Part shown: piece by piece, positions 1,110 to 63,057 of the stretch
How positions within the stretch are numbered: the first letter of the stretch is position 1
Layout of the letters: every line of letters starts with the position of its first letter
DNA from: Candidatus Omnitrophota bacterium
GTDB taxonomy: Bacteria; Omnitrophota; Gorgyraeia; Aquiviventales; Aquiviventaceae
Length of the DNA stretch: 63,610 nt
Reading direction: 5' to 3'
Assembly (NCBI GenBank): GCA_016190215.1
Contig: JACPRA010000039.1
Span: forward strand, 1-63,610
Translations under genes and position numbers: made by a program
The notes under the pieces: generated by a model
Told to the model about the DNA's origin: nothing
Seen by the model: only the letters and a program-made list of their open reading frames with translations
The model's database searches: none

Positions 1110-1139
1110 ACTCTAGCACAGGCACGGAGGGAGCGTCAA
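1110..1139 (-). promoter_or_regulatory. candidate sigma70 promoter for yggS (TTGACG-18-TAGAGT)
   Basis: Minus strand reads ttgacg ctccctccgtgcctgtgc tagagt, ending 7 nt before the GTG start, so the leader would be very short or absent. Confidence 0.35.
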
Positions 1140-1142
1140 CGA

Positions 1143-1227
1143 AGCACACAGCAGACAGCACACAGCATATAGAATATGACTCCTCTATCGAGGTGTGGTG
1201 TGCTGTAACCTGTGTGCTGTCTGCTGC
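1143..1227. repeat. heptamer-arm hairpin (agcacac agcagac agcacac agca / tgtggtg tgctgta acctgtg tgctgtc tgctgc)
   Basis: A 17-nt perfect complement (ctgtgtgctgtctgctg) sits within longer imperfect arms. The AT-rich loop is about 26 nt. The element abuts the ftsA stop codon (1229-1231). Confidence 0.7.
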
Positions 1228-20146: not shown

Positions 20147-20172
20147 CCTCTACTCCTTCGACAGGTCAACTG

Positions 20173-20257
20173 CGTCCATGGTCGACAGTCCACAGTCTAC
20201 GGTACCAATCGAAAATGATTGCTCGTACTGTGGACTGTGGTCTATGGACTGTGGACG
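20173..20257. repeat. heptamer-arm hairpin (gtcgaca gtccaca gtctacg / gtactgt ggactgt ggtctat ggactgt)
   Basis: Two 33-nt arms are imperfect reverse complements (about 24 of 33 positions by eye). The AT-rich loop is about 19 nt. Lies upstream of rbfA. Confidence 0.6.
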
Positions 20258-20273
20258 CCTTATCGCCAGAACG

Positions 20274-21053: not shown

Positions 21054-21082
21054 CCTTCACCCCTCACCCCCTACCCTTCACC
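21054..21082. repeat. C-rich heptamer array (ccttcac ccctcac cccctac ccttcac c)
   Basis: Four tandem 7-nt units read directly; fills the xerD-to-nucleotidyltransferase junction. Confidence 0.6.

Positions 21083-22021: not shown

Positions 22022-22038
<17 letters not shown>
21088..22038 (-). CDS. xerD: site-specific tyrosine recombinase XerC/XerD family
   Basis: SPTTVSSYAQDLKLFEAF, ELLYGAGLRVSE, HTLRHSFATHLL..GADLRTVQELLGHANIATTQRYTHV. Confidence 0.85.
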
Positions 22039-24656
<2,618 letters not shown>

Positions 24657-43147: not shown

Positions 43148-43450
43148 TCATAGATACTCCACCGTCTCTCCGTATTTCTCAAAATTTCCTACCACCGTCT
43201 TGACGATGAAGTCGTAGTCGGCATCAGAAACGGCTTCGTGCTCGTGAGGAGGTAACCACTTTCTATCTTTCGAAGGATAAATCAGTATGCTGGGCTTCCC
43301 GGGAAATCGCTCCATGAATATTTCAATTTTCCTTCCTTTAAACTCGACGAGGACAGAGTCTCTCGTTCCTCCGACAATGTAGCAGTCTTTGGCAATTCGT
43401 ATCTTCAATGCCTGTTTAACATATCCAACTAGCGTTCGGAATAACTTCAT
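43148..43450 (-). CDS. putative immunity protein for the upstream RHS C-terminal toxin
   Basis: 100-aa ORF, visibly AT-richer. Its ATG overlaps the RHS TGA by 1 nt (TGATG). No family recognised; the call rests on position. Confidence 0.55.
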   Translation of the reverse strand: MKLFRTLVGYVKQALKIRIAKDCYIVGGTRDSVLVEFKGRKIEIFMERFPGKPSILIYPSKDRKWLPPHEHEAVSDADYDFIVKTVVGNFEKYGETVEYL

Positions 43451-46400: not shown

Positions 46401-49400
46401 ACTCCTCCATCTGAGCGAGCCGTCCCTGCGCATCGGCGGTGGAGCGGGAGCGGTGGCCGTTGGCATCGGTGCTCGTGACGGTCCAGTCGTCGTAGGCCGT
46501 GGCCCACGTGGAGCCGTCCGGCTCAACCGTTTCCACAGGACGGCCCACCGCGTCGTACGTGTACGAGACCGCCGCGATGCTCGCGGCCGACGGCTCCTGG
46601 CTCATGGGCACATAGGACGAGGAGAGCGCGGAGCGATACGGAAGCCACTGTTTGGTCACGAGACCACGGTCGTCAAGCTCGGCCGCCCCGGTCACGATTT
46701 GTTGGGCAGGGTCTTCCGCGGGAGCGCGCGTCTGGACGGCGCGGCCCACACCGTCGAAAAAGGTGTAGCTTGTGAGCAACTTCGATTCGCCGCTGCGCTC
46801 CCGGACCTGTGTCGTCACCCGCGAGGGCACTGTGGACACCTCATACGCGAAGGCCATCGTGGGCAACGCCGCGGAGTCATTCGGGCCGATGAGCGCGCTG
46901 GGGCGCCCAAACACATCGTAGCGGGCCTGGGTCGTCACCCCGTTCGGATCAGTGGAGCGGGTCACCAGGCCGAACCGGGCGTCCCGCTCCATCTGCTGGA
47001 CATGGCCGGCGGCATTGGTGAGGCGCACGAGGAAGGCGTGAGACTCGTCATCGTAGCCAAGGGTAGTGGTTCGGGCGAGCGGATCGGTGAGGCGGGTGAC
47101 GTTGCCGTACTGATCGTACGCCAGATGGGTCGTCAGATACTCGTTGGTGGCGTTGAGCCATTCTGACACGGCGGTCAGGTTGCCTGTCGTCGGCGGATCG
47201 GTCAGGGCGGGATGATTGTCGTAGAAGAACCGCTGTTCCTTGAGGCGCGTGGTGCCATCCGGCCCGGCCACGGTAATCACGGCAGGCCGGTTGACGATCC
47301 ATGCCGATGGGTTGAGGGCGTAGCCGACGCGCGTGGTGCGCTCATCCCCGCTCACGCTCGTGTCGCCTTCTTCCGTGATCCGCGTCACGTTGCCGAAATC
47401 GTCGTACTCCAGCGACACGGCTGTCTCTTTCGACGACGCGTTCCCATCTAAGATGGTCTGCGCTTGGCGCTCCAACCGGCAGAAGCTGACCCCGGGGTCA
47501 GGGTCCGTGCATCGCCATGCGCTGGCCTGCTCCGCATAGCGGGCCCCCGACACATCGGTGACGGTGGAGCGCTCGAGGCGGCCTTTCAGGCGGTCATCCT
47601 GATGGAACCGCAACTCCGTGGTGGTGCCCGCGGCGTCGCGCGCCTGCACCACGGCGAACCCACGGAATTCTTTCGTCGCCGGATCGTACCGGCCGCCCTC
47701 GTAGCTGTAGCGCGTCGTCACCTGATGGTCGAGGCCGTCGTCCAGCGTCACGGCATCCACCACCGGCACCACAAAGGGTAAATCCGGCAGCGCATCGTCG
47801 CCGGTGTTGTCCAGGAGCCCGGAGGGGCGGTAGGTGAACGCGGCACTGCCCCCGATCCCATTCATTTGGCGGCTCAGCAGGTCCACGATCGCGCCGGTGG
47901 ATTGCGCCAGCTCGCCGGCGCCGGTGATCGGATCGAACACCCCTGGGTCGGCCAGCCCGTCGCCGTTGAAGTCGCCCACCTGGACCTGGTCGTTGGCGTC
48001 GCGCATGCTGAAGGTGGCAGCTACCGTCCGGGGGCTTCCAAATCCCGCGCCGGTGGCGGGAGCGTAGATCACCTGGCCCGCCGCCCGATTGTAGTACGCG
48101 ACGTCGCTGAGCCCGTCGCCGTTGAAGTCGGCGACAAGATGCTCTTGCCCTGCCCCGAACCCCTCCAGCCAGTTGGCCGATTCGACGAACTGCGATCCGT
48201 TGGAGAGGGCAACGCTGATCTGGCCGGAAGAGCGGTTGGCGAGGCCGATATCCGTCAGCCCATCGCCGTTGAAGTCGCCGGTCAGCGGTTCATGATTCCC
48301 CGAGCCCCAAGTGAGGGCAAAGGAACTCGCCGGCGAAAACACGCTCCCGCTGCTGAGCGCGACGGACCATGCGCCCACATTGTAGGTAGCCAGGTCGGAT
48401 GCGCCGTCGCCGTTGAAATCGCCGACGAACGGAGTGCCGCCGCCGAACGATAGGGCCGGCAGCGCGTCCGGCTGAAAACTCGAGCCGGTGGACCGCGCGA
48501 ACCGCCAGCTCCCGGCCTGATACGTCGCCACGTCGGTTCGGCCGTCGCCGTCCCAATCCCCCAGCACCGGGGCGGTCTGGACGGTGCCGAATCCGGAGAG
48601 CCAGGCGCTTCCCACCTCGAACAATCCGGCCCGGGATGCGGACACCGCCCACGTGCCGCTGGGCTGATCGAAGAAGGCTAGATCGCTGAGCCCATCGCCG
48701 TTGAAATCGCCGGAGAGCGACGGTTGGAGGAACTGCACCGGGTTCATAATGTCCACTTGGCCGGCGGGAGAACCGCTGAGCTGCCAGCCGAAGCCGCTGT
48801 TCTGGTTATAGGAGGTAATTTCAACGAGGTTCCATCCGGCGTTGAGCGACAAGGATTTGGCGGGCCAGCCAGGAATCTCTTGGAGCGTGCCGTTCAGGAA
48901 GACGCGGATCTGGGAATCCTCGGACGTGCTGAACGTGAGCGACGCCGTCTTGGGGCTTGCGACGAACAGATAGGTCCAGAAGTACAGATTCATGTCCCGA
49001 TCAGCGCCGACGGACAGGTTGCCTTGGCCGTTGATATTCCACGTGAGGCCGGGCGCGCTGCCGGAGGGCTGCGTGAACGTCGGAGAGGTTTCGGACCAGC
49101 TCACAATCTGGCTGGGATACAGGGGGGCGCCGTTTTCATCCCCCCAGTCCTTGCTCGCAAACCGCACGTTCCACAAGTTCGAGCCGCGCAACCCCGTATT
49201 CGAGGAGACGATATAGGTGGGTTGCGCGTCCGACTGGTAGGTGAAGGTGGTGGGCGGCAAGGCGGACACGCCGTCCGTTCCCACCTGCGTGACCGATGCC
49301 AGCAGGCTGCGTCCGGTGCGGGGGCTGAGCTGATAGGCCAGTTGATACCGGCGCACGAGCTGATCGGCAGCGGTCACGACGATCTCCTTCAACCGTTTCG

Positions 49401-50181
49401 CGGTCGTGATCCGCGCGCCGCTGCGGGCCGAAGTCTCCGCGTCGGGACGCTCTTCAAGGATGAACTCGACGGCGTTCGACGGAGCCAGCCCGCTCGGCTC
49501 ATGCCCCGCGTAGTCAATCCGTGAGAGATACGATTGCCCGCGGTCCTGCGCGTAGCCGACAGTCAGCGTGTTGCCGTTCGGGGTCATCACCGTTCGCAAG
49601 ACCCACCGGAACACGCCAGCAGGAGCGGCTTGCTCGGTCTCCGGAGTCCCGCCGAAGAGATAGCGCGTGCCGGAGGGATCCCGCGCCTCCCAGCCGTCGG
49701 CGCCCTTCTGCTCCACGCGAAAGAACGCGCCCTCATCCTTCGCCCGGTAGGTGCCGTCCGGAATCCGCGCCAGCTCCAGGCTGATCCCGTGGAGATTCAG
49801 CAAGAACGTGTCGGTGCCGTCGTACCGCGGCACGCCGTTTTTGGTGGAACGCTCGATCGCGCCGACTTCCATATTCCATCCGACCCCCACCCACCCGTTC
49901 CGGCTTGAGGACGCATAGGTCAGGGCGAGGGCAGGCTGCAGGCCGCGCCGGCCCGGCGGGAGGAGAATGGGCACCGACGTGGTCGCGCGCCCGGTGAACC
50001 GATCCGCCTGAAACCCCTCAATCAGCGTGGCGGCAGGCGGCGGCGCGGATCCCGCCGATTCGATGGTCGAGCCCAGGTGAGCCGCTTCAACATGAGGCGG
50101 AAATGCCGCTTGAGCGATGACCAGCGCGAGCGCCGTGACCGCCGCAATTGTTCGTCGGAAAAGAGCGGCTGGAGAATCCAT
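43450..50181 (-). CDS. RHS/YD-repeat polymorphic toxin with Tc-toxin B-C-fusion-like architecture
   Basis: Signal peptide. SpvB-type N-terminus (FTGRATTSVPILLPPGRRGLQPALALTYASS..GWGVGW-like). About seven FG-GAP/VCBS repeats (GDFNGDGLSD). Many YD repeats (YDxxGN). RHS core YYDPSLGRFLSADP...NPLRFTDPSGL. Then a 282-aa AT-richer C-terminal module. Confidence 0.9.
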   Translation of the reverse strand: MDSPAALFRRTIAAVTALALVIAQAAFPPHVEAAHLGSTIESAGSAPPPAATLIEGFQADRFTGRATTSVPILLPPGRRGLQPALALTYASSSRNGWVGVGWNMEVGAIERSTKNGVPRYDGTDTFLLNLHGISLELARIPDGTYRAKDEGAFFRVEQKGADGWEARDPSGTRYLFGGTPETEQAAPAGVFRWVLRTVMTPNGNTLTVGYAQDRGQSYLSRIDYAGHEPSGLAPSNAVEFILEERPDAETSARSGARITTAKRLKEIVVTAADQLVRRYQLAYQLSPRTGRSLLASVTQVGTDGVSALPPTTFTYQSDAQPTYIVSSNTGLRGSNLWNVRFASKDWGDENGAPLYPSQIVSWSETSPTFTQPSGSAPGLTWNINGQGNLSVGADRDMNLYFWTYLFVASPKTASLTFSTSEDSQIRVFLNGTLQEIPGWPAKSLSLNAGWNLVEITSYNQNSGFGWQLSGSPAGQVDIMNPVQFLQPSLSGDFNGDGLSDLAFFDQPSGTWAVSASRAGLFEVGSAWLSGFGTVQTAPVLGDWDGDGRTDVATYQAGSWRFARSTGSSFQPDALPALSFGGGTPFVGDFNGDGASDLATYNVGAWSVALSSGSVFSPASSFALTWGSGNHEPLTGDFNGDGLTDIGLANRSSGQISVALSNGSQFVESANWLEGFGAGQEHLVADFNGDGLSDVAYYNRAAGQVIYAPATGAGFGSPRTVAATFSMRDANDQVQVGDFNGDGLADPGVFDPITGAGELAQSTGAIVDLLSRQMNGIGGSAAFTYRPSGLLDNTGDDALPDLPFVVPVVDAVTLDDGLDHQVTTRYSYEGGRYDPATKEFRGFAVVQARDAAGTTTELRFHQDDRLKGRLERSTVTDVSGARYAEQASAWRCTDPDPGVSFCRLERQAQTILDGNASSKETAVSLEYDDFGNVTRITEEGDTSVSGDERTTRVGYALNPSAWIVNRPAVITVAGPDGTTRLKEQRFFYDNHPALTDPPTTGNLTAVSEWLNATNEYLTTHLAYDQYGNVTRLTDPLARTTTLGYDDESHAFLVRLTNAAGHVQQMERDARFGLVTRSTDPNGVTTQARYDVFGRPSALIGPNDSAALPTMAFAYEVSTVPSRVTTQVRERSGESKLLTSYTFFDGVGRAVQTRAPAEDPAQQIVTGAAELDDRGLVTKQWLPYRSALSSSYVPMSQEPSAASIAAVSYTYDAVGRPVETVEPDGSTWATAYDDWTVTSTDANGHRSRSTADAQGRLAQMEEFAGSQIFRTAYQYDPLDNLTQVTDARGNVTRAAYDSLSRRTELDDPDMGRWTSAYDAVDNLIRQTDARGVEQGVNYDPLDRPTRVEFAIPAGSGIPDAGPITYTYDGSAGSFSIGRLTGRQDPVSSAHFEYDNLGRTIKETHTIEGASNVFEANFDLLDRLTSLTYPDGERVAYTYNAQGGVETVASDATSYVQGIEYNAADQPTVLTLGNGTTTSYAYDPRTLRATHLTTRGASSAVLQDIAYAYDAVGNLTRVEDVRAGEVETFAYDDLDRLARADEPDQAWTFAYDPLGNLTVKGSTTLSYDQPNGRRPHAVTATSEGWAFEYDANGSMAAKFSAAQSPAARELSATRFDVDADNRMVHVAAPTTETVSVALQFGWNFFSLPVIPDDLSIRAVFPSFGADIQQISRYNPQTHRLEDHVGDPQFDDFSTLEYGRGYQVYCATPAGLTVTLTGKTPTRKPAFSLEPGSHLIGSSALTAQPAGWLLDPLVRGEDYDAFAEYDPASGSLVETAEVHPAGAYYLHAVRQAAWAPPLPKDTATRLTYDGDGVRVKKATASSSTTYVGDLYERSAADTTKHIFAGGMLVASKPSGGPARFYHPDHLGSTNVVTDAAGAAVARYAYAPFGEVRQKTGPVDVAHQFTGQLADPETGLYFYQARYYDPSLGRFLSADPLVQNPADPQFLNRFAYVRNNPLRFTDPSGLVVEPVSLGSGAVAALSDVWGAAAPWLGALGAIGIIGGLIFLGFKLFGGRGGGSPSLPPGPIESTPFSSLVSLPGVTFAQFGQAAQVGGVGTGAVLNIKAMQQLATRLRTADPAVLAEPLISGASDFFAGTGDMFSFGVTDWVRGRLGLNEYVNKSSGLYKMGKVAGFGLSLAAGGAGSLNAGSRTVLYSGEGALGVARGARVGQLMEQTLGGRLLNGLEFLSRKFLRRNLPQGIWDAASGTFAANAKGTVYAFLRNPRVNSVFNRIENPVLKFFKNTVLRRL

Positions 50182-53072
50182 CAAGGCGCCTGGGGCGGAA
50201 CCGCCGGCCGCGCCACGTAGACATCCACCGGCTTCGAGGCTTGCCCGCCGAAGCCGTCCCGCACCCGAATCTCAAACCGTCGGCGTCCGAGGATGTCGGA
50301 CGGCGGCGTCCAGGCATGCGCAGCCTGCGGTGTCCAGTCCGCCAGCACTTGACCGTCCAACAGTATTTGGTACATCAGCGGGTCACCCTCGCGGTCGAGG
50401 GCCGTCACCGTGATCGTCGTCGGGATCTCTATGTGGACTTTGGGACCATCCGTCAGCTCGACCGCGGCAATCTCCGGCACCGTGCCGCGCACGACAGTGT
50501 AGGTGCGTACGGTCTGAAAGCCTCGAGGGCTGACGGCGGTGACCGTGATGGTGTTGGGACCCTCCGCCAGCGGCACGGTTCCTTCAAATTTCCGCCCGGC
50601 GCGGCTCGCCGGTTGGCCGTTGATGTCCACCCGGGTCAGGCTGTCATCCACGGTCCCCGTGAACACCAGCGGGGTGAGGTTGGTTTTTGCCGGCGGAGCG
50701 GCCTCCATCACCGGAGGAAGCTGGTCCAGGATGACATTGGCCGTCGCCGACGTGCTGACCACGCCTGAACGGCTCTTCGCGACGATCGCGAAGAGGTTGT
50801 CCCCTTCCGTCAGCCCGACGACCGCCGTCCACGTCGTGGCATCGCCGGCCGGAACCACCTCGACCCCATTGATCCAAATGGAGGTGCCGGGGGTTTTCGT
50901 GCCGGACAACGCGGCGGAATCGGCATCCGTCACGATCAATGATTGTCCGACAGTGGGACGCGGCGGTGGTGCGGTATCCAGGGTGACGGAGATCGCGTGC
51001 GAGGCCTGGTTGCCGGCCGGATCCACCGCTGTCGCCGTGATCGCGTTGGCCCCTTCGGTCAGCGTCATTACCGCAGAGAACGTTCCAAGCGTGACCGGCG
51101 CGGGGATATCATTCACGCGCACGGTGGCTTGCGGGTCATCCACGGTGCCCAACACCGTCAGCGAACTCGTGCCGGAGGGAATCATCGGAGCCTCGGTGGG
51201 ATAGCCAGCCCACAGCGTCAGGATGCCGTTGGTGACCGCCCCCGCCGTCAACGATCCGACGCTCACGACGCTGCGCACGCCTCCGGCCTCCGCCACGCCG
51301 CCACCCACACTGGCCAGGACGTATTGGACCATGGTGAAGACGTTGTTTGACAATAGCGCGATGGGAAACGGCCCGTGGGGCTGTGATGTTTTTGGCGTCG
51401 CGGGCCTGGACCAAAAATAGTTCAACGCGCTGCCGGGCCCCAGCACGGCACCGTCTGTCGGCTGGGTGATCTGAATGCGTGGAGGTGTCGTGTCCGGAGC
51501 CCCGGGCACCGTCAATGGCAGCGTGACGGACGCGCTCCGATGGGTCGGGTCGGACACGATGAACGTCACCGCATGGCTGCCGCCCTGATCCGCGCCCGGG
51601 ACCCAGCGGAAGAACCGTCGCTCGGGATCGAACGCGGCCCCCGTCGGCAGACCGGTTGCACTGTAGGTCAGCGGCTCGTCGTCTTCGTCCTTCCCCTGCA
51701 CATAGAAGACCACAATCTTATTCGGTGCGAGATTACTGGGCGGCCACCGGAGGCCGAAGTCCGTCACCAGGACACTGAAATCCACGGCGCTGATGCGGCT
51801 GTCGCCGTCGAGATCAGCGCGGGGATCATACCGGGCGTCGCCGACGCTCGTCCCGAACGCCGTCACCAGGACGGAATAGTCCACGATATCCACGCCGCCA
51901 TCGCCGTTGATATCGGGGCTGAGAATCCGCAGGGTGGGCGGGTGCGGCTCCGGCGCGATGACCGTGATCGCCAGGGTCTGTGGAAGCGAGGCGAGGTCGC
52001 CGTCGTTGGCCACGGCCGTGAGGGTGTAGGTACCCGCCTGCGTCCGGGCGGGTTGCCAGAAGAAACAAAACCGGTTCGAACCAGGACCGCGATACCCGGC
52101 CACCAGGCGCAGGATATGGATGGAGTCCACACTACTCAGTTGGCCGTCTTGATCCACATCGGCTGCCGCTCGCTGCGCTGGGGTGAGTTGCTGGAGGCCC
52201 ACGACCTGTCGCAGCACGAACAGCGCATCTACACTCTCCACCTGCCCGTTGCGATTCACATCCCCCATCGGATATACCTGCGCGCCGGCCGGCAAGGGCG
52301 TCACCTGCAGGCTGACCCGGTGATCGTCCGGATCGGTGGCGGTCATCAGGACGCTCAGGGACTCCTCGGTCCGAATGGTCCGCGCCTCGAGGGGTCCGAG
52401 AATAGGAGCGCGGTTCCTCGGAGCGATGTCTGGAGCGGGTGTCCCGCTGGACGATGTATCGTTGGAAGAACCCTCGGAGGGAAGAGGCGTTGGGCTCAAC
52501 ACCGGTTGGGTTGCAGGCTTGAAGACGAGAGATGGCGCGGAGGACAGCGTCACCGGGGCAGCAGGTTTTCCTCGTATTCCCCGCGAGGAGGCCATGGGGG
52601 AGGACTGAGGAGTGACCGGCACAGCCTCTGGAACCGGTTTCAATGCGATATGGCGCTGGAGCTGATCTGTCCACGGCGACATCCACGTCGTGGTGGTCGC
52701 TGACTGATAGCCTGACGCGGTGGCTGACACGGTCACCCGCTGCCAACCGTGCGGGTGGGGCATGGTTGTCGTGTAGGCGCCCTCTATTGCCCGCACAGTT
52801 TGGGTCACCTTCGCCCGGGGAAGAGTGATCGTGACGCGAGCCTGCGGCAGGGGCTGCCGCGTAGCGGCATTGATGAGCCGTCCCTGGATCGTGACGGTCG
52901 GGCTGGCTGCGTTCCCGGATTCGGTCGCTTTCGCCTGAACGTCGACAGCACCGGCAAAACCCACGCATACCCCGAGCACGAAACGGCTGACCGCCAGCGG
53001 GCTACAGCCACAATGCTGACGCGGCGGTCGCGTTGAAGAAGAAGCGTAGCGGTCGTATGGCTTGGACATCAT
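50181..53072 (-). CDS. large secreted protein with CarboxypepD_reg-like, cadherin/Ig-like and dockerin-type repeats
   Basis: Signal peptide (..FVLGVCVGFAGAVDVQA). Two pairs of dockerin-like Ca-binding repeats (DVNRNGQVESVDALFVLRQV, DVDQDGQLSSVDSIHILRLV, DINGDGGVDIVDYSVLV, DLDGDSRISAVDFSVLV). Several Ig-like modules (TLTEGANAITATAVD..). Its TGA overlaps the RHS ATG. Confidence 0.7.
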   Translation of the reverse strand: MMSKPYDRYASSSTRPPRQHCGCSPLAVSRFVLGVCVGFAGAVDVQAKATESGNAASPTVTIQGRLINAATRQPLPQARVTITLPRAKVTQTVRAIEGAYTTTMPHPHGWQRVTVSATASGYQSATTTTWMSPWTDQLQRHIALKPVPEAVPVTPQSSPMASSRGIRGKPAAPVTLSSAPSLVFKPATQPVLSPTPLPSEGSSNDTSSSGTPAPDIAPRNRAPILGPLEARTIRTEESLSVLMTATDPDDHRVSLQVTPLPAGAQVYPMGDVNRNGQVESVDALFVLRQVVGLQQLTPAQRAAADVDQDGQLSSVDSIHILRLVAGYRGPGSNRFCFFWQPARTQAGTYTLTAVANDGDLASLPQTLAITVIAPEPHPPTLRILSPDINGDGGVDIVDYSVLVTAFGTSVGDARYDPRADLDGDSRISAVDFSVLVTDFGLRWPPSNLAPNKIVVFYVQGKDEDDEPLTYSATGLPTGAAFDPERRFFRWVPGADQGGSHAVTFIVSDPTHRSASVTLPLTVPGAPDTTPPRIQITQPTDGAVLGPGSALNYFWSRPATPKTSQPHGPFPIALLSNNVFTMVQYVLASVGGGVAEAGGVRSVVSVGSLTAGAVTNGILTLWAGYPTEAPMIPSGTSSLTVLGTVDDPQATVRVNDIPAPVTLGTFSAVMTLTEGANAITATAVDPAGNQASHAISVTLDTAPPPRPTVGQSLIVTDADSAALSGTKTPGTSIWINGVEVVPAGDATTWTAVVGLTEGDNLFAIVAKSRSGVVSTSATANVILDQLPPVMEAAPPAKTNLTPLVFTGTVDDSLTRVDINGQPASRAGRKFEGTVPLAEGPNTITVTAVSPRGFQTVRTYTVVRGTVPEIAAVELTDGPKVHIEIPTTITVTALDREGDPLMYQILLDGQVLADWTPQAAHAWTPPSDILGRRRFEIRVRDGFGGQASKPVDVYVARPAVPPQAP

Positions 53073-57315: not shown

Positions 57316-58664
57316 TATTGCATCGCCATCTCTACCTCGAATTCCACGCGATCGCCCCCGGAGCCCGGCCGTGGCGTGGCATATTTCAGCGTCGAGCTTT
57401 CCACGCCGTCCACGCGCCCCAACTGTTTGGCGTAATCGAGCACCATCTGAGTCGAGGGGGCTTCTCCGCGCAGTACTAAACTCTGTCGAGCGCGCTCAAA
57501 CGCCACACGCTCCAATACCAGACCGACCGGCGCGCTCCCCAGCACCTCCCCCAGCATCACCGAGATCCGCCGGCGCGCCTCGATCGCCTCGCGCACGTGG
57601 CGGGAAACACGGCGCTGATCTTGCAGGCGGTTCACGTCCGGCTCCAGCGCGCGAATGGCTTCATCAAGCCGGCGCGCCGCCTGCTGCTGTCGGGACAGGC
57701 GCAGCTCCATCCACCCGATGCCCAGCGCCGCGGCCACGCTGAATAGCGCGCCCACGATCATCAGCTCTCGGGACTGCCGGCGGTGGCGCGCCTGGGCCCG
57801 CACCTCAGGCGGAGCCAGGTCCAGCACGTTCGCCAGGTCGGCCACCGCCAGAGCTCCCGCGACCACCGAGGCCCCTTCGATCACACTGACCTGAAGGCCG
57901 CATCGCTGAGCCAACAGCCCGTGCCACTCACTCAATGCGCCGAATCCGGTCAAGACCACGGAGCGCACCTCCGCCTCCGGCAATCCTTTGCGGAGGACCG
58001 CCCGGCACTGCTCCACCTCCTGAACCAACAGCTCCACCGCCTGTTCCGAGGTCGTCCAATCGTGCGCCCCCGCCGCCACCCCGCGGCTCGATAAGATCCG
58101 GCCGCCCTCAATGACCACCACGTCTGTCCGAGTGTCGTCCACGTTCACCACGAGGACGGGTTCGACGATGGGTGCCGCCGGTTGGTTGCGGCGATACCAC
58201 TCCGCAACCCCGGAGGAGCTGACCGCCAGCCGGTCGGGCGCAAACCCAGCCTCGCGAAAGAGCGTGAGGTAGCGTTCCACGACCTGGCGCTGGCACACTG
58301 CCAAGAGAACCGTGCTCACTCCGTCCCGCTGGCTCACCACGGAGAAGTCCGTCACCGCCTGCTCGGCCGGATACGGCAGATGGGCTTTGGCATGGAGGGC
58401 CACCATGCGCCCGAGCTCCTCCGCATCAACTGATGGAAAGTTCACCAAGCGGGTGATGACTTCCTCCCGAGGAATCACACCGATGACCTGGGCTGATCCA
58501 ACCTTGGCCCGCTTGCGCAGCTCGCGCAGCGCGTTGGCCGCGTCCGTCTCGGCATGGCGGCTGGCCGCCATCATTTCCGGTTGAACCTGGCCGCGGCGCC
58601 GCTGAGCCACCGCCATGCGCACGGACGCGCGCGTCCATTCCACCACCACTCGCACCGGCATCAC
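57315..58664 (-). CDS. GspL-like (PilM actin-like domain fused to a PilN-like TM/periplasmic domain)
   Basis: About 280-aa actin/FtsA-like cytoplasmic domain, TM helix LMIVGALFSVAAALGIGW, coiled-coil and periplasmic domain. Confidence 0.6.
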   Translation of the reverse strand: MMPVRVVVEWTRASVRMAVAQRRRGQVQPEMMAASRHAETDAANALRELRKRAKVGSAQVIGVIPREEVITRLVNFPSVDAEELGRMVALHAKAHLPYPAEQAVTDFSVVSQRDGVSTVLLAVCQRQVVERYLTLFREAGFAPDRLAVSSSGVAEWYRRNQPAAPIVEPVLVVNVDDTRTDVVVIEGGRILSSRGVAAGAHDWTTSEQAVELLVQEVEQCRAVLRKGLPEAEVRSVVLTGFGALSEWHGLLAQRCGLQVSVIEGASVVAGALAVADLANVLDLAPPEVRAQARHRRQSRELMIVGALFSVAAALGIGWMELRLSRQQQAARRLDEAIRALEPDVNRLQDQRRVSRHVREAIEARRRISVMLGEVLGSAPVGLVLERVAFERARQSLVLRGEAPSTQMVLDYAKQLGRVDGVESSTLKYATPRPGSGGDRVEFEVEMAMQ

Positions 58665-59629
58665 TCGCGCGCTCCTTCCCGCCAGGCCAGCACGGTGGGG
58701 CGCATCCCTTCCGCGCCTCGGCGCACCACCGCCTCCACGCGGGCTCGGGCCGGCACCGGCCCCTCCACCAGGCCTTCGGCCACCACGAGGAATGTCTTGG
58801 ATGTGACTCCGAACTTCGCCCGGACGTTCTGAAACTCCGAGTCGCCTGGGTCAAACGGCGCCGGCACGCTGGGATCGTCGGTGGCCACGTCCGGCGCGAG
58901 ACGAAGGAAGTAATGCCCGCGTCCGCGAAACGACATCACCGCCTCGATGAGCGCCGGGCTCAGGCCCACGGCTCGCAGCGCCTCCCGCCCGGCGGTATTG
59001 ATATTGACCAAACTACCGGGCTCCAGCCATGGGCTGGCCGCCTGCTGCAACGCCTGGAACATCTCGTCCGTCATCCCCGGAATCTCGCGAAGTTCTTCTG
59101 GCGCGGCAAATGGAGCATCCTTCGGGACATAGGGCGGACCAACGGACGCGGTTTCCGTAGCGTCGGGCGGGTCGCGATAGTCGAGGATGGCCGCCGCCAG
59201 CGCCTCCGGCACGCCCAACCGCGCCAACGTCTCAGGTTCGGCAGTATTGAGATTGATCTTCCGCTCCTCATCGCTCATGCGCACCGTGAGCGTGCTAGCC
59301 ATGGAGCCTGTCCCTGCTGGAAGTTGCACGACCCGCTGGGCGGGATTATCCGGCGCAGCTTCGGGCGGCGCCGCCCAGTCGTCGCCCAACCAGTCCACGG
59401 CGTCGGCCGCGGGCCGGCCGGGAGTCGCGTCGTCCATCAAGCGTTGCAGCGCCACCGTAATGCCGCTGCGTGCCAGCAGGCTGGCCTGGGCCTGGCTCAG
59501 GCGGTATTTCGTCAGCCGCACATCCACCGATAGATATCGCGCGATCGTCACCGCCAACACCGAGAGCACCACCACCAGCCACAATGTGATGAGAAGCAGC
59601 GAGCCGGAGCGCGCACCGAATCGGATCAT
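58661..59629 (-). CDS. gspK: GspK-like minor pseudopilin
   Basis: SGSLLLITLWLVVVLSVLA N-terminus; two helix-hairpin-helix-like motifs INLNTAEPETLARL and VNINTAGREALRAVG. Confidence 0.7.
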   Translation of the reverse strand: MIRFGARSGSLLLITLWLVVVLSVLAVTIARYLSVDVRLTKYRLSQAQASLLARSGITVALQRLMDDATPGRPAADAVDWLGDDWAAPPEAAPDNPAQRVVQLPAGTGSMASTLTVRMSDEERKINLNTAEPETLARLGVPEALAAAILDYRDPPDATETASVGPPYVPKDAPFAAPEELREIPGMTDEMFQALQQAASPWLEPGSLVNINTAGREALRAVGLSPALIEAVMSFRGRGHYFLRLAPDVATDDPSVPAPFDPGDSEFQNVRAKFGVTSKTFLVVAEGLVEGPVPARARVEAVVRRGAEGMRPTVLAWREGARE

Positions 59630-60321
59630 TCCGGAGAGCCGCCGGCGGCGTCCCGCGGGGGCAAAATGCCCGAGGGAATCGCGCACACCCGTCGGAGCGG
59701 CGGTCCGTTGGAGCGCTGGAGGACGACCTCCACCAGGCGCGGCAGCTCAGGCAGGCGATTCCATTGATCGCTCCATGCCGACGGCCCGCCGGCCTCCGGC
59801 GTCGCGACGGCGTAGCGGAACGCGGCGCGCTCGCAGCCCGGCAGCAGCAGACGCGCCAGCGGTTCCTGGCCGGCCCGGGCCTCTGTCGGCGATTGGCTCA
59901 GCCTCCAGAATCCCAACACGCCGTCGCGGGATTCACACACATAGCGCACCCATTCCACCCGCGCGGGGCTGCGGCCGGCGGACATCCAGGTCCGCCACTG
60001 GGCGGCCTCTGAGCCAAATCGGATCGCCGCGCCGCTGACCGAATCCTCCGGCGCCGGAACCTGCTCATCGCGGATGGCGCAGGACAGATCACGTTCCAGC
60101 CGATCGAGCGCGACCCATTGGCGCTGCCGATCTTCAGAGGTTTCCGACACCCGACGCCAGACCATGATCCCGCCCTGCAGATGGCTGAAGAACCCCACCA
60201 TCAGAATGGACGTCATCGTCGAGGCGACCATCAACTCCACCAAGGTAAATCCCAGAGCCGCTCGAGGCTCGAGGCTCGAGGCTCGAGGCAAAAGCGGATT
60301 TATCGACGGCGATTGCTGCAT
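59626..60321 (-). CDS. GspJ-like minor pseudopilin with a 24-aa leader
   Basis: Prepilin motif LG/FTLVELMVA after the leader MQQSPSINPLLPRASSLEPRAAL; position between the I-like and K-like genes. Confidence 0.6.
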   Translation of the reverse strand: MQQSPSINPLLPRASSLEPRAALGFTLVELMVASTMTSILMVGFFSHLQGGIMVWRRVSETSEDRQRQWVALDRLERDLSCAIRDEQVPAPEDSVSGAAIRFGSEAAQWRTWMSAGRSPARVEWVRYVCESRDGVLGFWRLSQSPTEARAGQEPLARLLLPGCERAAFRYAVATPEAGGPSAWSDQWNRLPELPRLVEVVLQRSNGPPLRRVCAIPSGILPPRDAAGGSPE

Positions 60322-60353
60322 GTCCCTTGAGCCTCGAGCCTTCAGCCTTGAGC
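60260..60353. repeat. heptamer-arm hairpin: (gctcgag)x4 / (ccttgag cctcgag ccttcag ccttgag)
   Basis: Complementary 7-nt arrays about 30 nt long. The 34-nt AT-richer loop holds the gspJ-like ATG (60319-60321). One arm is coding (PRASSLEPRAA). Confidence 0.8.
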
Positions 60354-60377
60354 TAAGACGTGTTTTCCCGCAACCTG

Positions 60378-60833
60378 TTAAAACCATTCCGGCGGCACCC
60401 AGTCGGTGGGATAGACGGCGGAGAGCGTCAGGGGAGCCGAAGAAGCTCCCTCCTGGCGCACCGTCAGCTCCAGCTCGCTCAACGGCACGCTGGTTCCCCG
60501 CGCAGGCAGCGCCTGCGCGCGAAGCGTCCAGCGCACCGCCTGGTTGGGCGCGGGAAACAGCACGTCGCGAATATCCCGAGGCAAACCGCGCGGGTCTGCG
60601 ACGAGACGGGCGTCAAGTTCCCGCCACTGCTCCTGGGCCAAGGCCAGCAGCCGGTCGCGCTCGTCCATCACCCGGATGGCGCGGAGTTGGCTGGACAGCC
60701 CCCGGCTGACGAACACGACCCCCACCGCCAGGACGACGGCTGAGAGGACAGCCTCAAGAAGGAGAAACCCGCTCCGTCTCTCCCTGCGAGACGGGCCGGC
60801 CTGTTGTGACGCGCGTTTCACCGGTTGTGTCAT
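60378..60833 (-). CDS. GspI-like minor pseudopilin
   Basis: SG/FLLLEAVLSAVVLAVG prepilin-type N-terminus; about 150 aa; overlaps the 3' end of the H-like gene, so the start is uncertain. Confidence 0.55.
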   Translation of the reverse strand: MTQPVKRASQQAGPSRRERRSGFLLLEAVLSAVVLAVGVVFVSRGLSSQLRAIRVMDERDRLLALAQEQWRELDARLVADPRGLPRDIRDVLFPAPNQAVRWTLRAQALPARGTSVPLSELELTVRQEGASSAPLTLSAVYPTDWVPPEWF

Positions 60834-61290
60834 CCACCGTAATCGTGTAGGCGAGGCCCTCCGCTTGGAGTATCAGCGTCGTGGCCTCGCTGGTCCCATC
60901 TGGAAACATCTGCAGGCAATCGCATGCCGCCCGCACCCCCTGCCTGGTGACCTGTACCGAGAGATTCTTCGAAAGCGGAGGGCCGTCCCGTCCCAGCTCA
61001 GCGTCGGAGCCCTGCGCTGCCGATTCGATCCGGGTCTGATGAGTGTTGGCATCCCACCGCCACGTCAGCGGGCGGGATTGCAGCACCGCCTGCGCCCGAG
61101 CGAGGCGAAGGCTTTGCGCCATCGTATACGCCGCCTGCTCGACCCGAAGGCGATGCGCCGTCTGCTGCAATCTCGGGACCGCCCCCGTCACCAGGATCGC
61201 CAGCGTGGCGGACACCAAGACCACCTCAATGAGCGTAAATCCTTGGAGGGGCACGGGGCGAGGGGCATGGGGCACAGGACTCAACCGCAT
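60754..61290 (-). CDS. GspH-like minor pseudopilin with a 17-aa leader
   Basis: MRLSPVPHAPRPVPLQG/FTLIEVVLV. Start taken at ATG 61290 in the hairpin loop. Confidence 0.6.
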   Translation of the reverse strand: MRLSPVPHAPRPVPLQGFTLIEVVLVSATLAILVTGAVPRLQQTAHRLRVEQAAYTMAQSLRLARAQAVLQSRPLTWRWDANTHQTRIESAAQGSDAELGRDGPPLSKNLSVQVTRQGVRAACDCLQMFPDGTSEATTLILQAEGLAYTITVDDTTGETRVTTGRPVSQGETERVSPS

Positions 61291-61330
61291 GATTCTGTTG
61301 TTTTCACCCTGCCCCCTGTCTCCTGCCCCA
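61245..61330. repeat. heptamer-arm hairpin: (aggggca cggggcg aggggca tggggca) / (ccctgcc ccctgtc tcctgcc cca)
   Basis: A G4-tract array faces a C-rich array. The 26-nt loop holds the gspH-like ATG. The G-rich arm is the antisense of the leader-peptide codons. Confidence 0.8.
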
Positions 61331-61333
61331 TAT

Positions 61334-61765
61334 TCATTGCCAGTTTGCAACGTCGTCGCGTCCCGGCTGGCCGTCCGGACCCAATGACGAGAGATCGTAA
61401 TCCTGACCGTGCTGTGATTCGCGTTGATACAGATACGGCCGCCCCCACGGGTCGTTCGGCAGCCCGCGCTTCAGATAGGGGCCGCGCCACCTGCCCCGAG
61501 TCTCTTCATCCAGCTCCGAGGGCGCATCCCGGGCGATCAACGGATCCAGCCTCGACGGATAGGCGCCGGTGTCCAATTCATACAAGTCTAACGCCAGCCC
61601 GATGGCCGCAAGATCGGAGGCGGCGCGGGCCGTCTTCGCCTGCTCGGTGCGGCCGGCCATCCGCGGCACCACCATGGCGGCCAACACGCCGATGATGACC
61701 ACCACCAGCATCAACTCCACCAGCGTGAATCCCTTGAGGGGCAAGGGGCATGGGGCAAGGGGCAT
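61334..61765 (-). CDS. gspG: major pseudopilin GspG
   Basis: MPLAPCPLPLKG/FTLVELMLVVVIIGVLAAMVVP....A.......DL..I..AL..Y..D.G.YP, then PNDPWG.PY.Y. An alternative upstream ATG at 61843 overlaps the gspF stop. Confidence 0.85.
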   Translation of the reverse strand: MPLAPCPLPLKGFTLVELMLVVVIIGVLAAMVVPRMAGRTEQAKTARAASDLAAIGLALDLYELDTGAYPSRLDPLIARDAPSELDEETRGRWRGPYLKRGLPNDPWGRPYLYQRESQHGQDYDLSSLGPDGQPGRDDVANWQ

Positions 61766-61819
61766 GGGACGACCCCGTGTATCCCAAGAGATTCTGCTTG
61801 GTTCACACCCCTGCCCCAT
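61736..61819. repeat. heptamer-arm hairpin: (aggggca aggggca tggggca aggggca tggg) / (cacacccctgccccat)
   Basis: Long G4-tract array with a shorter C-rich partner. The array covers the gspG start codon and leader codons. Confidence 0.7.
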
Positions 61820-61839
61820 AAGGCATGCGTTGACTGTGC

Positions 61840-63057
61840 TCATTGCACGACCAATCCGATTTGAAACACCGGCAGCAGCATTGCCAACACAATCACCATG
61901 ACCATCCCTCCAACGAACAGCAACAACACCGGTTCCAACACCGTGGTCAGCAGGCGCACGGCGCGCTCGATCTCCCGCTCGTAGACGGCGGCGATCTTCA
62001 GCAGCGCGCCATCCACCGTGCCGCTCTCTTCTCCCACCGCCACCATGTGATGCACCGCCGCCGGAAACGCTCCCGTCGCGGCCAAGGCGCCGGCCAACCC
62101 GGCCCCGCCCCGGATGGCATCCTGGACGCCGACGATCGCCTGCTGCAGCCAGCCGCGTCCCAGGTGCCGGCTCCCCACCTCCAGCGCCTGCAGCATGGGC
62201 ACGCCCTGGCGGACCATGATGCCCACACTGCGCACGAAGCGTTCGATCTCCAGCTTCCGCAGCAGCGCGCCAATCCCAGGAAGCCGCAGCAGCAGCCGAT
62301 CCAGCGCCTGGCGGCGCGCCGGATCTTTCAGCCACCGCATCCCAACACCCGCCGCGCCGATGCCGGCGATCGCCAGCGCCCACCACCAGCGCGTGAATAG
62401 CGCGCTGATGCTCACGAGCAGCCGGGTCGGCCACGGCAGCGCTTGGCCGGACTCGAGAAAGACCAACGACAGCTTTGGGATCACGTACACCAGCAAAAAG
62501 ACGGTCATGCCTAACGCCACGCACAGCACAAAGATGGGATAGGCCGCAGCGCCGGCCACCCGGTCCCGCAGATCAGCTTCATGCTCCCCCAGCTCCGCCA
62601 ACCGGTTGAGGGCGTCCTGCAAGGTGCCCCCGGCTTCTCCCGCGCGGATCATGCTGCGATAGAGCGGCGGAAAGATGTCCGGGTGGTCAGCCACCGCTTC
62701 GCTCACGGACCGCCCCTGCTGGACGGCCGCGGCCAGCTCGTTGATGACCTGCCGAAGCGCGGGATGCTCGGTCTGCTTGGCCAGCAGCGACAGCGCCCCG
62801 GCCACCGGCACGCCGCCGCCGAGCACATCCGCCCATTGCTGCGTCATCGTCGCCAGCGCCCTGACCGAGACGCGCCGGAACGCCAGCCGATGGCGCAACG
62901 AGGCCGGCGCACGGACTTCGGCCACCGACACCGGCACGATTCCGCTTCTTCCTAATTGGGTAATGGCGGCAATCTCATCATCCGCCTCCAGCGTGCCTTC
63001 TACCAGCTCGAATGCGGAGGTTTTGGCTCGATACGCAAATCGGGGCATGCGCGTCAC
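61840..63057 (-). CDS. gspF: GspF/PilC-family platform protein
   Basis: Two repeats of the T2SF domain (SM..AGE.GG.L...L and AVGEESG.VD..L), three TM segments. Confidence 0.9.

Follow-up and report, generated by a model that had tools for sequence, protein, structure and literature searches.

Our analysis suggests that the heptamer hairpins at the starts of the pseudopilin genes gspG, gspH and gspJ are probably tolerated (or mobile) repeat insertions and not start-codon switches. In the explanation that we regard as likely, they are palindromes of heptamer arrays that turn over fast, are translated in frame within the cleavable leader and are tolerated there. The window (the whole stretch of DNA analysed here, 63,610 nucleotides of an Omnitrophota contig) carries on its minus strand an Omnitrophota T2SS operon with the gene order gspE-F-G-H-I-J-K-L-M…C-D. 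Homologue comparison shows that the GspG homologues belong to Candidatus Omnitrophota, and Pfam matches in the operon comprise T2SSG, GspH, T2SSJ, T2SSK, T2SSF, T2SSL/PilM, T2SSM, T2SSC and Secretin. The assignment of the three hairpin-bearing genes to the pseudopilins, made earlier from the sequence alone, is borne out by matches on the minus strand to T2SSG + N_methyl (61334-61765), GspH + N_methyl (60754-61290) and T2SSJ + N_methyl (59626-60321). Cleavage motifs read G|FTLVEL in GspG, G|FTLIEV in GspH, G|FLLLEA in GspI and G|FTLVEL in GspJ, and the full class III signature is present (a Gly at -1, a hydrophobic residue such as Phe at +1, a Glu at +5 and, following these, a hydrophobic stretch of about 20 residues; Pfam N_methyl for G, H and J). 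The genes and the glycine codons preceding the cleavage sites are as follows.

61840..63057, minus strand: gspF, platform protein (Pfam T2SSF, 6e-58); its TGA stop at 61840-61842 overlaps the coupled gspG start
61334..61843, minus strand: gspG, major pseudopilin, long form of 169 aa from the ATG of caATGA overlapping the gspF stop; 38-aa leader, then FTLVEL (Pfam T2SSG + N_methyl)
61730-61732, minus strand: Gly(-1) codon of gspG
60754..61350, minus strand: gspH-like minor pseudopilin (Pfam GspH + N_methyl, ORF list, junction analysis); Gly(-1) codon at 61240-61242
60378..60833, minus strand: gspI-like minor pseudopilin; Gly(-1) codon at 60768-60770, 14 nt inside the gspH 3' end
59626..60387, minus strand: gspJ-like minor pseudopilin, long form from the ATG at 60385-60387 within the last gspI codons (GAATGG); 46-aa leader (Pfam T2SSJ + N_methyl, ORF list, frame conservation)
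60250-60252, minus strand: Gly(-1) codon of gspJ

The deposited GspG call (P0001) starts at the ATG at 61763-61765 and has 143 aa; the 169-aa form is called exactly so in an independent assembly (P0121). An exact look-up of the 143-aa GspG returned no record, and the same protein and the 169-aa form are present in the cluster tables.

Heptamer arrays had been reported for this region, and they are real. TRF recovered period-7 arrays at 60260-60289 (GCTCGAG x4.3, 100%), 60325-60353, 61246-61274 and 61737-61768, and complementary arms were found, giving three leader hairpins.

61737..61823, minus strand: gspG leader hairpin; 5' arm 61802-61823 (CCTTATGGGGCAGGGGTGTGAA), 3' arm array 61737-61768 (ATGCCCC/TTGCCCC x4.6); TRF and inverted repeat search
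61246..61331, minus strand: gspH leader hairpin; 5' arm 61307-61331 (ATGGGGCAGGAGACAGGGGGCAGGG), 3' arm array 61246-61274 (GTGCCCC/ATGCCCC/TCGCCCC); TRF
60260..60353, minus strand: gspJ leader hairpin; 5' arm 60325-60353 (GCTCAAG/GCTGAAG/GCTCGAG), 3' arm 60260-60289 (CCTCGAG x4.3, perfect)

Period 7 alone is enriched in the window (four arrays vs 0-1 for periods 4-12 at the same threshold), and heptamer hairpins supply the strongest local inverted repeats across all 63.6 kb. Taken one by one, the gspJ hairpin alone makes a strong fold (dG -53.7, z -4.4, 0/200 shuffles); those of gspG (dG -44.9, z -2.24) and gspH (dG -40.2, z -2.05) are modest, with 5/200 and 8/200 shuffles, respectively, folding as well. 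The genes gspI and gspK carry no such hairpin, just as had been claimed. In gspI there is no room for an insert because its leader is dual-coding with the gspH 3' end, an arrangement (Gly(-1) at -14) conserved in nine related loci; small hairpins occur at gspH/gspI where the two genes are separated (L007, L083, L086). GC3-based gene calling of the window missed the pseudopilin genes, and the junction-based enrichment (hairpins at 3 of 5 pseudopilin starts vs 5 other sites in an estimated 55 genes) is therefore approximate.

Which start codon is used decides how these structures are to be read. The sequence-only reading had placed the start codons in the hairpin loops. CAT (ATG on the minus strand) does occur at 60319-21, 61288-90 and 61763-65, so that all three genes possess an in-frame ATG near the hairpin apex, and the leaders of 24, 17 and 12 aa deduced from these ATGs for gspJ, gspH and gspG are correct in length and peptide sequence; the gspG ATG, however, belongs to the first unit of the 3' arm (ATGCCCC) and is not a loop base. 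The same reading let the 5' arms fill intercistronic gaps, and here it fails: there is no real gap, the frame of all three genes being open through the 5' arm up to a start that overlaps the preceding gene. These coupled starts are ATG 61841-61843 for gspG (caATGA at the gspF stop), ATG 60385-60387 for gspJ and TTG 61348-61350 within the gspG end for gspH, with leaders of 38 aa in GspG, 46 aa in GspJ and about 37 aa in GspH. For gspH the candidates are thus this TTG (37-aa leader) or the ATG at 61288-61290 (17-aa leader). The leaders are hydrophilic and net positive, with 12/17/24 aa from the apex ATGs or 38/37/46 aa from the coupled starts (gspG/gspH/gspJ). Alternative in-frame starts also exist near the Gly codon, namely a TTG in gspG (giving MPLKG) and a GTG in gspH (giving MPLQG). 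Because either could start past the arm, the argument that the arms have to be coding is strictly binding for gspJ only.

The reading frame across relatives points to the coupled starts. The gspG gene of 13 of 15 close relatives shares its frame with an ATG that overlaps the gspF stop (caATGA), and in all 13 the ORF is open to Gly(-1); between the gspF stop and the glycine codon lie 14, 23, 35, 38, 65, 74, 80, 83, 95, 98, 107, 110 or 113 nt, every one of these values being 2 mod 3. The inserts at this junction comprise at least 11 distinct sequences, for which the chance expectation of a shared frame is about (1/3)^11. Frame is conserved relative to the stop of the upstream gene over insert lengths from 9 to 99 nt, and the loci L161, L162, L165 and L166 show the same in-frame coupled arrangement at gspG. 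The other junctions behave alike: at gspI/gspJ, a start located -7, -4 or -1 from the gspI stop shares the gspJ frame in 10 of 12 loci (distances 11 to 299 nt), and at gspG/gspH the loci fall into two frames (10 and 4 loci), in both of which the starts overlap the end of gspG, the third frame being found in no locus. The pseudopilin leader inserts of the relatives are palindromic, in frame and stop-free within the ORF, the exception being L163, where a TGA in the 5' arm interrupts the coupled frame and an internal start, for which the 3' arm offers an ATG, is required. Since the frame is kept and open from the coupled ATG to Gly(-1) across relatives, the whole hairpin, both arms and loop, is most likely translated, and the coupled start is presumably the one used in the window. 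Internal initiation may also occur in the window, because the L163 allele must start internally.

Comparison of orthologues adds that the inserts come and go. In their orthologous gspG, gspH and gspJ leaders, related Omnitrophota hold hairpins of unrelated sequence, solo arrays or no insert at all. In L005, L083 and L084 the place of the hairpin is taken by a solo array that lacks a partner arm, and the inserts that different genomes carry at one junction are unrelated, except that the family of the 7-nt unit is sometimes shared. An alignment of orthologous pseudopilin genes had been proposed as a check for leaders without the arrays, and such leaders do exist: empty gspG alleles encode MRARRG (L081) and MRGSRMRRG (L087), and gspJ is empty in L004 and L087. 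At gspH, L006 is empty and its close relative L082 has 75 additional nt whose heptamer family is that of L082's own gspG insert; no target-site duplication could be clearly defined in this pair. GspG proteins that cluster at ≥90% identity may begin with no more than MSRRG or MRRG or with repeat leaders of 29-43 aa that are unrelated to one another. Among 139 GspG leaders 61% have at least 15 aa, residue identity is 0.219 at lag 7 and about 0.06 at other lags, and the peptides are hydrophilic with a mean net charge of +4. Unrelated, in-frame and stop-free inserts at the same junctions, their presence or absence among near-identical genes and the completely different leaders of GspG proteins at least 90% identical support the first of two explanations offered by the sequence-only reading, a repeat element inserted into a disposable part of the protein. 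Inserts occupy 11 of 15 gspG junctions, a frequency for which pure permissiveness is not obviously the reason.

The same class of hairpin occurs at unrelated junctions of the window.

22511..22597, minus strand: hairpin in the N-terminus/signal peptide of a putative lipoprotein (22022-22639), in which it is translated; CACAGCA/CTGCTGT arrays, directly after the ligA stop
1143..1226, minus strand: untranslated hairpin of CAGCAGA/CAGCACA arrays that follows the ftsA-like stop (1229) and precedes the yggS-like start (1102); fold z -4.9
20172..20258, minus strand: untranslated hairpin of GTCCACA arrays upstream of rbfA (start 20146); fold z -7.5

The six window hairpins have no shared consensus, and half of them lie inside ORFs. 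Dozens of different heptamer units make up the arrays; heptamer families are shared within a genome, units common to different sites of one locus amounting to 14.5% vs 4.3% between loci. Arrays cluster within the 130 nt that precede prepilin Gly codons, both in the close clade (28 of 40 vs 1.9 expected by bases) and in distant loci (24 of 53 vs 3.0 expected by bases), an enrichment that is less striking per gene junction than per base, since the pseudopilin cluster lies at the centre of the loci. A G-quadruplex reading of the GGGGCAN arrays was rejected as a general explanation, since most families (CAGACAT, CCAAAAT, CGCATTC, CTCGAGG) are not G-rich. Orthologue alignment together with the underlying DNA shows that the lipoprotein hairpin keeps both arms in distant orthologues that are only ~45-50% identical. 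The kept 5' arm, which pure permissiveness does not obviously explain, hints at selection for structure or at homogenisation between the arms.

We therefore propose the following scenario. The three pseudopilin structures are members of a genome- and clade-wide class of heptanucleotide-array palindromes, each consisting of two short imperfect tandem 7-nt arrays in inverted orientation, with solo arrays and plain palindromes also occurring. They lie in frame within the class III leader segment, between the conserved coupled start overlapping the preceding gene and Gly(-1). Ribosomes most likely read both arms and the loop, producing long, hydrophilic, positive leaders with a 7-residue period. 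Prepilin peptidase would then cut even leaders of this length, and because the leader is removed the mature pseudopilin would remain unchanged. A tightly packed genome should offer few harmless places for 20-120 extra bases, so that such elements would accumulate and turn over fast at leaders. On this account the inserts would be neutral or selfish, not regulatory.

The second explanation of the sequence-only reading was a translational operator: translation would start at the ATG near the hairpin apex, and the stem would hide the ribosome-binding region and so tune the amount of each pseudopilin. The in-frame ATGs at or beside the loop of all three window genes agree with it, as do an SD-like AAGGGA 4-9 nt before the gspJ loop ATG (paired in the stem), the deposited GspG call beginning at 61765, the interrupted coupled frame of L163, and L084 and L089, whose only nearby in-frame gspH starts fall inside the 5' arm. 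The apex-ATG geometry, however, is not conserved: L002, L003, L004, L005 and L084 have no in-frame ATG, GTG or TTG between coupled start and Gly, the internal ATG of L001 and L007 is located in the 5' arm, and across the orthologous junctions compared neither a start codon nor an SD recurs at the same place in the structure. Within the window, no SD-like motif precedes the apex ATG of gspH or gspG. Internal initiation would give no reason for the frame to be kept so strictly with respect to the upstream stop, and the solo arrays at the same position lack the partner arm that a stem would need. Nor does the sense RNA have a folding advantage, which is present in 16 of 33 hairpins vs 17 for the antisense (mean difference -0.23 kcal/mol); on the antisense strand each of the six window hairpins is at least as stable as on the sense strand, and the 33 hairpins show no G-U asymmetry that would indicate selection on sense-strand RNA. 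With the loop ATG not conserved, the frame tied to the upstream stop and no strand bias in folding, a setting of pseudopilin stoichiometry by occlusion appears distinctly unlikely. The lack of strand asymmetry also counts against REP-like elements of mRNA processing or stability, i.e. RNase III targets or exonuclease barriers that would bracket gspG and uncouple major from minor pseudopilin amounts, translation being incidental. It is true that gspG has a hairpin on either side in the window as well as in L004, L082, L083, L084, L085 and L089, that each hairpin begins, REP-like, 2-25 nt past the upstream stop codon, that the 20-30 bp stems should fall within the size range of RNase III substrates, and that the lipoprotein hairpin retains both arms. 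In Haemophilus, heptanucleotide repeats reportedly act together with a hairpin of the 5'-UTR that RNase III cleaves (PMC12721329). Orthologous hairpins, however, are not homologous in sequence; a cut inside the hairpin would sever the conserved coupled start from its gene, which fits poorly with frame conservation; and the elements are dispensable, because empty alleles are common among near-identical strains. Since a U-tract is absent they are not intrinsic terminators either, and searches found no intrinsic terminator or promoter at the pseudopilin hairpins and no terminator-like site at any hairpin. Rfam 15 yielded only a tRNA at or above the gathering threshold in the window, and at 60150-61950 only generic hairpin matches to miRNA precursor models (20-35 bits vs a threshold of 90). 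We consider processing elements improbable to the same degree as the operator.

A contingency locus, in which gain or loss of one 7-nt unit between start and Gly(-1) shifts the frame and turns the pseudopilin off or on as in neuO, is very unlikely here. The unit length is not a multiple of 3, the arrays separate the start from the functional part of the protein, near-identical strains have hypervariable leaders, and heptanucleotide SSRs are known phase-variation devices. Such repeats have reportedly been published for neuO and for Haemophilus hmw1A/hmw2A, and in neuO the repeat copy number sets the reading frame. The Omnitrophota arrays, on the other hand, are short (3-5 units) and imperfect and hence ill suited to slippage, the few near-identical alleles include no pair that differs by one unit (L006 equals L082 in length, and L161, L162 and L166 are equal), a complementary arm would be unnecessary, and the same elements also sit in untranslated junctions. 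Truncated GspG calls beginning with 'MLV…' were considered as frame-shifted OFF alleles and rejected: the coupled frame is intact in 4 of 5 distinct junctions, so that these starts are gene-caller choices, and only L163 has a real in-frame stop. A bolder reading, which we hold to be unlikely, is an undescribed small mobile or self-propagating noncoding element made of inverted 7-nt arrays and homing to the first codons of exported-protein genes after coupled starts. Its rapid gain, loss and replacement would make control of pseudopilus and lipoprotein expression hypervariable and possibly switchable, via coupled initiation, mRNA processing or frame.

A literature search found no paper describing Omnitrophota repeats or hairpins of such a kind, which is not proof of novelty; we regard the hairpins as a variant of already known repeat kinds (RPE-, STRR- and REP-like). 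With the REP/BIME elements of enterobacteria and pseudomonads they share imperfect palindromes just past stops inside operons, multiple copies and variability between strains. A consensus common to the whole species, a conserved 5' tetranucleotide and a link to RAYT transposases characterise REPs, which by definition lie outside genes, whereas the six window hairpins show no consensus and many Omnitrophota copies are inside coding sequence. Like the neuO repeats of E. coli K1, the Omnitrophota 7-nt tandem units stand between start codon and protein body and are translated in all three frames in turn. Known contingency arrays, in contrast, are long runs of perfect repeats whose unit number varies from clone to clone; the Omnitrophota arrays have 3-5 imperfect units, show no unit-number variants among the few near-identical alleles and mostly come with a complementary partner arm. 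Cyanobacterial STRR arrays of the older literature may likewise be comparable, as few-copy tandem 7-nt units (TRF) adjoining start codons. TAACTGA repeats of Beggiatoaceae, cyanobacteria and Bacteroidetes form 2-6 tandem, variant-interrupted 7-nt units immediately upstream of start codons, and are strain-specific with indels in 7-nt steps (PMC4679880). They consist of one conserved heptamer with stops in all frames and are intergenic, untranslated and, with one exception, unpaired, whereas the Omnitrophota arrays belong to many heptamer families, are mostly paired as hairpins, stop-free and translated. Rickettsia palindromic elements (RPE) exist in many genomic copies, often in frame in coding genes and translated without destroying the host protein (PMC10969869). 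The Omnitrophota elements are similarly palindromic, multicopy, in frame and translated as an extra peptide. RPEs, however, form 100-150 bp families with conserved sequence and encoded peptide in the body of metabolic enzymes, whereas the Omnitrophota elements (7-nt tandem units, 50-120 nt) differ from site to site and reside in a proteolytically removed segment (class III leader, lipoprotein signal peptide) or in gene junctions. Class III leaders are cytoplasmic and hydrophilic, vary in length from 6 to 26 aa and have a terminal Gly, and the prepilin peptidases that cut them off are promiscuous; those of type IVb and Flp pilins, also Gly-ended and cut by prepilin peptidase, have 15-30 aa (PMC4471445). 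The Omnitrophota leaders resemble the latter in being long, ending in Gly and presumably being cleaved by prepilin peptidase, and those of 38-57 aa exceed the documented class III range of 6-26 aa (PMC4471445). Type IVb and Flp leaders have family-conserved sequences, whereas in Omnitrophota repeats encode the leaders, which change from one near-identical strain to another and occur alongside leaders of 4-6 aa on the same mature protein.

Our results also have a practical side. Gene callers place the start of the same gene in three ways, at the coupled ATG, at the apex ATG or at an internal Met after a GTGGAG pseudo-SD, and pseudopilin N-termini in Omnitrophota MAGs are therefore unreliable. 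The heptamer palindromes add a high-GC uncultured lineage to the few known cases of heptanucleotide arrays clustering at gene starts, and would be the second clear example, after the Rickettsia RPEs, of palindromic repeats inside reading frames, here in a part of the protein that is discarded. The filled/empty polymorphism between strains is natural material on the spread of such elements. An entire candidate phylum appears to tolerate, or to use, repeat-encoded class III leaders of up to ~57 aa on near-identical major pseudopilins, and such leaders would stretch the accepted limits of prepilin peptidases and of SRP targeting.

By Pfam, the minus strand of the window encodes a type II secretion operon at 56.8-63.6 kb, with the genes arranged as follows:

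63054 onward, minus strand: gspE (Pfam)
61840-63057, minus strand: gspF (Pfam)
End at 61334, minus strand: gspG (Pfam)
End at 60754, minus strand: gspH (Pfam)
60378-60833, minus strand: gspI
End at 59626, minus strand: gspJ (Pfam)
58661-59686, minus strand: gspK (Pfam)
After gspK, minus strand: PilM/GspL-like gene and GspM-like gene (Pfam)
Beyond the GspM-like gene: ExeA-like ATPase, GspC and secretin GspD (Pfam)

A few kb from the secretin gene, 43450-50271 (minus strand) encodes a 2273-aa protein of Tc-toxin/RHS type with SpvB, TcdB_toxin_midN, FG-GAP and RHS-repeat domains. The homologues of GspG, like the nearest genomic loci, all come from Candidatus Omnitrophota MAGs, predominantly from groundwater.

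The sequence-only reading had described 7-nt arrays paired into hairpins at gspG, gspH and gspJ, and this observation is real. TRF detects period-7 arrays at 60260-60289 (a perfect GCTCGAG x4.3), 60325-60353, 61246-61274 and 61737-61768, a repeat search recovers the complementary arms, and the ATG coordinates and leader peptides given for them are correct. The heptamer pattern taken whole is far from chance: no tandem period other than 7 is enriched in the window, and the heptamer hairpins are the longest local inverted repeats across all 63.6 kb. Folded as single-stranded RNA, the hairpin of gspJ stands out clearly (-53.7 kcal/mol, z -4.4); those of gspH and gspG show only a moderate gain over shuffles (z about -2). 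Heptamer hairpins are not special to pseudopilins, as three further sites combine array, loop and complementary array, and solo arrays without a partner arm also occur:

1143-1226: heptamer hairpin between ftsA-like and yggS-like genes
20172-20258: heptamer hairpin upstream of rbfA
22511-22597: heptamer hairpin directly after the ligA stop
405-430 and 21057-21082: solo arrays

Each site has its own heptamer, yet families recur: GGGGCAN is common to gspG, gspH and 405-430, and CAGCA(C/G)A to 1143 and 22511. Between hairpin 1143-1226 and the GTG start of the yggS-like gene (1102) lies a sigma-70-like TTGACG-18-TAGAGT with an extended -10 TG (1110-1139, minus strand). Its -10 box ends just 8 nt before the start codon, which suggests a leaderless or near-leaderless yggS-like transcript beginning right after the hairpin.

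Where translation starts decides how the leader hairpins are to be understood. Each of the three window genes has a frame that stays open across the 5' arm as far as a start overlapping the end of the preceding gene (coupled start):

61841-61843, minus strand: gspG coupled start, ATG of caATGA at the gspF stop
61348-61350, minus strand: gspH coupled start, TTG inside the gspG end
60385-60387, minus strand: gspJ coupled start, ATG inside the last gspI codons

Orthologous loci were fetched to decide the start (80 from species-representative genomes, 80 from metagenomes); the closest clade at gspF/gspG comprises 15 loci and has a common GspF C-terminus. Between the gspF stop and the codon of Gly(-1), the last leader residue before the cleavage site, these loci have 14 to 113 nt. 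In 13/15 loci this distance equals 2 mod 3, which matches the frame of the ATGA start, and all 13 frames are open; the two exceptions differ in their junction (an extra inserted gene in L083, a TAA stop and own ATG in L089). Four additional contigs fetched later behave identically. One locus, L081, is an uninterrupted site (ATG-AGG-GCG-CGA-CGA-GGA, MRARRG↓FTL), and the other close loci carry at this empty spot inserts of 9 to 99 nt that are all multiples of three, stop-free and unrelated in sequence:

L001: GAGTGCG/CGCATTC arrays
L004: GGGGCAA/CCACGCC arrays
L006 and L082: GGATTTT/CCAAAAT arrays
L007: GCTCGTG/CCTCGAG arrays
L002 and L003: plain palindromes
L005 and L084: solo arrays

Given at least 11 independent insert sequences, the chance of such frame preservation is about (1/3)^11. 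In L002, L003, L004, L005 and L084 there is no other in-frame ATG, GTG or TTG from the coupled start to Gly, so the insert must be translated there. At gspI/gspJ, the gspJ frame matches a start lying -7, -4 or -1 relative to the gspI stop in 10/12 loci, with distances that run from 11 nt in an empty site (MALSRRG↓LTF) up to 299 nt. The gspG/gspH junction provides weaker evidence: there are two ancestral frames, each with starts overlapping the gspG end, and the third frame is never used. In an independent assembly the window's own GspG (P0121) is called from the coupled start, with 169 aa and a 38-aa leader.

Translation of both arms and the loop is thus the most economical reading. The alternative, a start codon held in the hairpin loop that sets pseudopilin stoichiometry, places the start at an apex ATG, and this ATG is not conserved among orthologous junctions. 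For gspG and gspJ such a mechanism is probably wrong; for gspH the data speak neither for nor against it. Internal initiation must, judging from L163, occur in at least some alleles, since the 5' arm of this locus is interrupted by a TGA and its 3' arm supplies an in-frame ATG. A regulatory hairpin more generally gains no support from our tests: the sense strand folds better in 16/33 hairpins and the antisense in 17/33, no U-tract was found at any hairpin, and no Rfam family matched. Orthologous hairpins are also not homologous to each other. Occupancy of the gspG junction in 11/15 loci and a retained 5' arm at the lipoprotein gene described below nevertheless keep the door open for this option.

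Several GspG database entries (L161-L166; P0122, P0128, P0140, P0144) begin at a Met within the transmembrane helix (ELMLVV), and the GTGGAG of Val-Glu codons 5 nt before this internal ATG mimics a Shine-Dalgarno site; these truncated calls are annotation artefacts. L164 (1-160) has two gspG-like genes in tandem, and the GCGGATT/AATTCGC heptamer hairpin that parts them is once more in frame with a TTG start, which here overlaps the NWE* end of the upstream gene. In close relatives GTGYTATACT, which resembles an extended -10 box, is kept 8-13 nt 5' of the gspF start, whether or not a heptamer hairpin precedes; in the window, the overlap of gspE with gspF accounts for its absence:

L001 1826-1835, L004 3722-3731, L006 3668-3677, L007 3682-3691: GTGYTATACT
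L082 2668-2677, L084 1477-1486, L085 171-180: GTGYTATACT

The sites of insertion are informative in themselves. Of the arrays with at least 3 units, 28/40 in the close clade (1.9 expected by bases) and 24/53 in distant Omnitrophota (3.0 expected) lie within the 130 nt preceding a prepilin Gly codon; since the pseudopilin cluster sits at the centre of these loci, the enrichment is smaller on a per-junction count. In nine loci (among them the window at 60754-60770, L001, L003, L004, L006, L081, L082, L084 and L085) the gspI Gly(-1) codon begins 14 nt before the gspH stop in another frame, so the gspI leader is dual-coding. This dual-coding overlap is conserved, and gspI never carries an insert in these loci; in L007, L083 and L086 gspH and gspI lie apart and small hairpins occur there. 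The gspE/gspF hairpin of L001, L006 and L084 occupies a true intergenic gap and is untranslated. The common denominator is a harmless place, either an intergenic gap or a removable N-terminal targeting segment. The other option of the sequence-only reading, insertion of a repeat into a protein segment that can be spared, is well supported, and the phenomenon is clade-wide and hypervariable. A '23S rRNA-intervening sequence protein' gene (small, four-helix bundle, bAvd-like; 25-486, minus strand) adjoins the solo GGGGCAA-type array 405-430 at the yggS 3' end. Genes of this family are also inserted in L083 (about 3480-3900, between gspF and gspG) and L166 (1456-1812, after gspG), and thus seem to move into junctions also used by hairpins.

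Outside the pseudopilins, one hairpin may even have acquired a function:

22022-22639, minus strand: putative lipoprotein gene with hairpin 22511-22597

Translation of this ligA/lipoprotein hairpin yields the n- and h-regions of the putative signal peptide, whose hydrophobic core is encoded by the (CTGCTGT)n array of the 3' arm. AVCCLL and the TGCTGTN array are kept in 8/8 orthologues found (45-73% identity), and the non-essential 5' arm (HSTQHTAH) in at least 4/8; in L170 the hairpin again follows an ATGA-coupled start. The repeat arm seems to have been co-opted as a working signal sequence.

Leaders of the 139 GspG proteins of the family span 4 to 57 aa (61% of at least 15 aa). Residue identity stands at 0.22 for lag 7 and at about 0.06 for the remaining lags, which is the mark left by 7-nt units translated in each of the three frames. 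The leaders carry a mean net charge of +4 and are hydrophilic, as expected for class III leaders (PMC4471445). Within GspG clusters at >= 90% identity leaders are unrelated, one cluster holding MSRRG beside MRRADPRLQTSDFRQSHLKSGVSGLKSHG and a single cluster four different leaders. The gspH site is empty in L006 and has 75 extra nt in its close relative L082, with the heptamer family of L082's own gspG insert, and a heptamer is shared (<= 1 mismatch) by 14.5% of site pairs within a locus vs 4.3% between loci. Together these comparisons indicate that elements are rapidly gained, lost and replaced, and that they are copied or homogenised inside a genome. In L001 (4457-4576) the gspJ leader holds a nearly perfect, in-frame translated, non-heptamer palindrome of about 50 bp (junction dG -112 kcal/mol); such sites thus accept palindromes generally, not 7-nt arrays only. 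Four distant gspG loci (L019, L044, L056, L077) have a second prepilin-like motif (K/NGFTPLE or GFAPLE) in extended N-termini, 30-45 residues before the real SLTG↓FTL site, which looks like a duplication of the cleavage-site module; heptamer arrays are not its cause.

Among the papers covered by our literature search, none describes these elements. Nearest in behaviour are the Rickettsia palindromic elements, palindromic inserts in the reading frame (PMC10969869), and nearest in composition the heptanucleotide direct repeats adjoining start codons in Beggiatoaceae, cyanobacteria and Bacteroidetes (PMC4679880). REP elements resemble the hairpins in position, and neuO-type heptanucleotide repeats resemble the arrays in their 5' coding location. 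Each of these systems has at least one defining feature that the Omnitrophota elements do not share: the latter have no conserved element sequence, use many heptamers, are paired into hairpins and would be translated, then discarded. They matter mainly for repeat biology, for Omnitrophota annotation and for the limits of class III leader processing.
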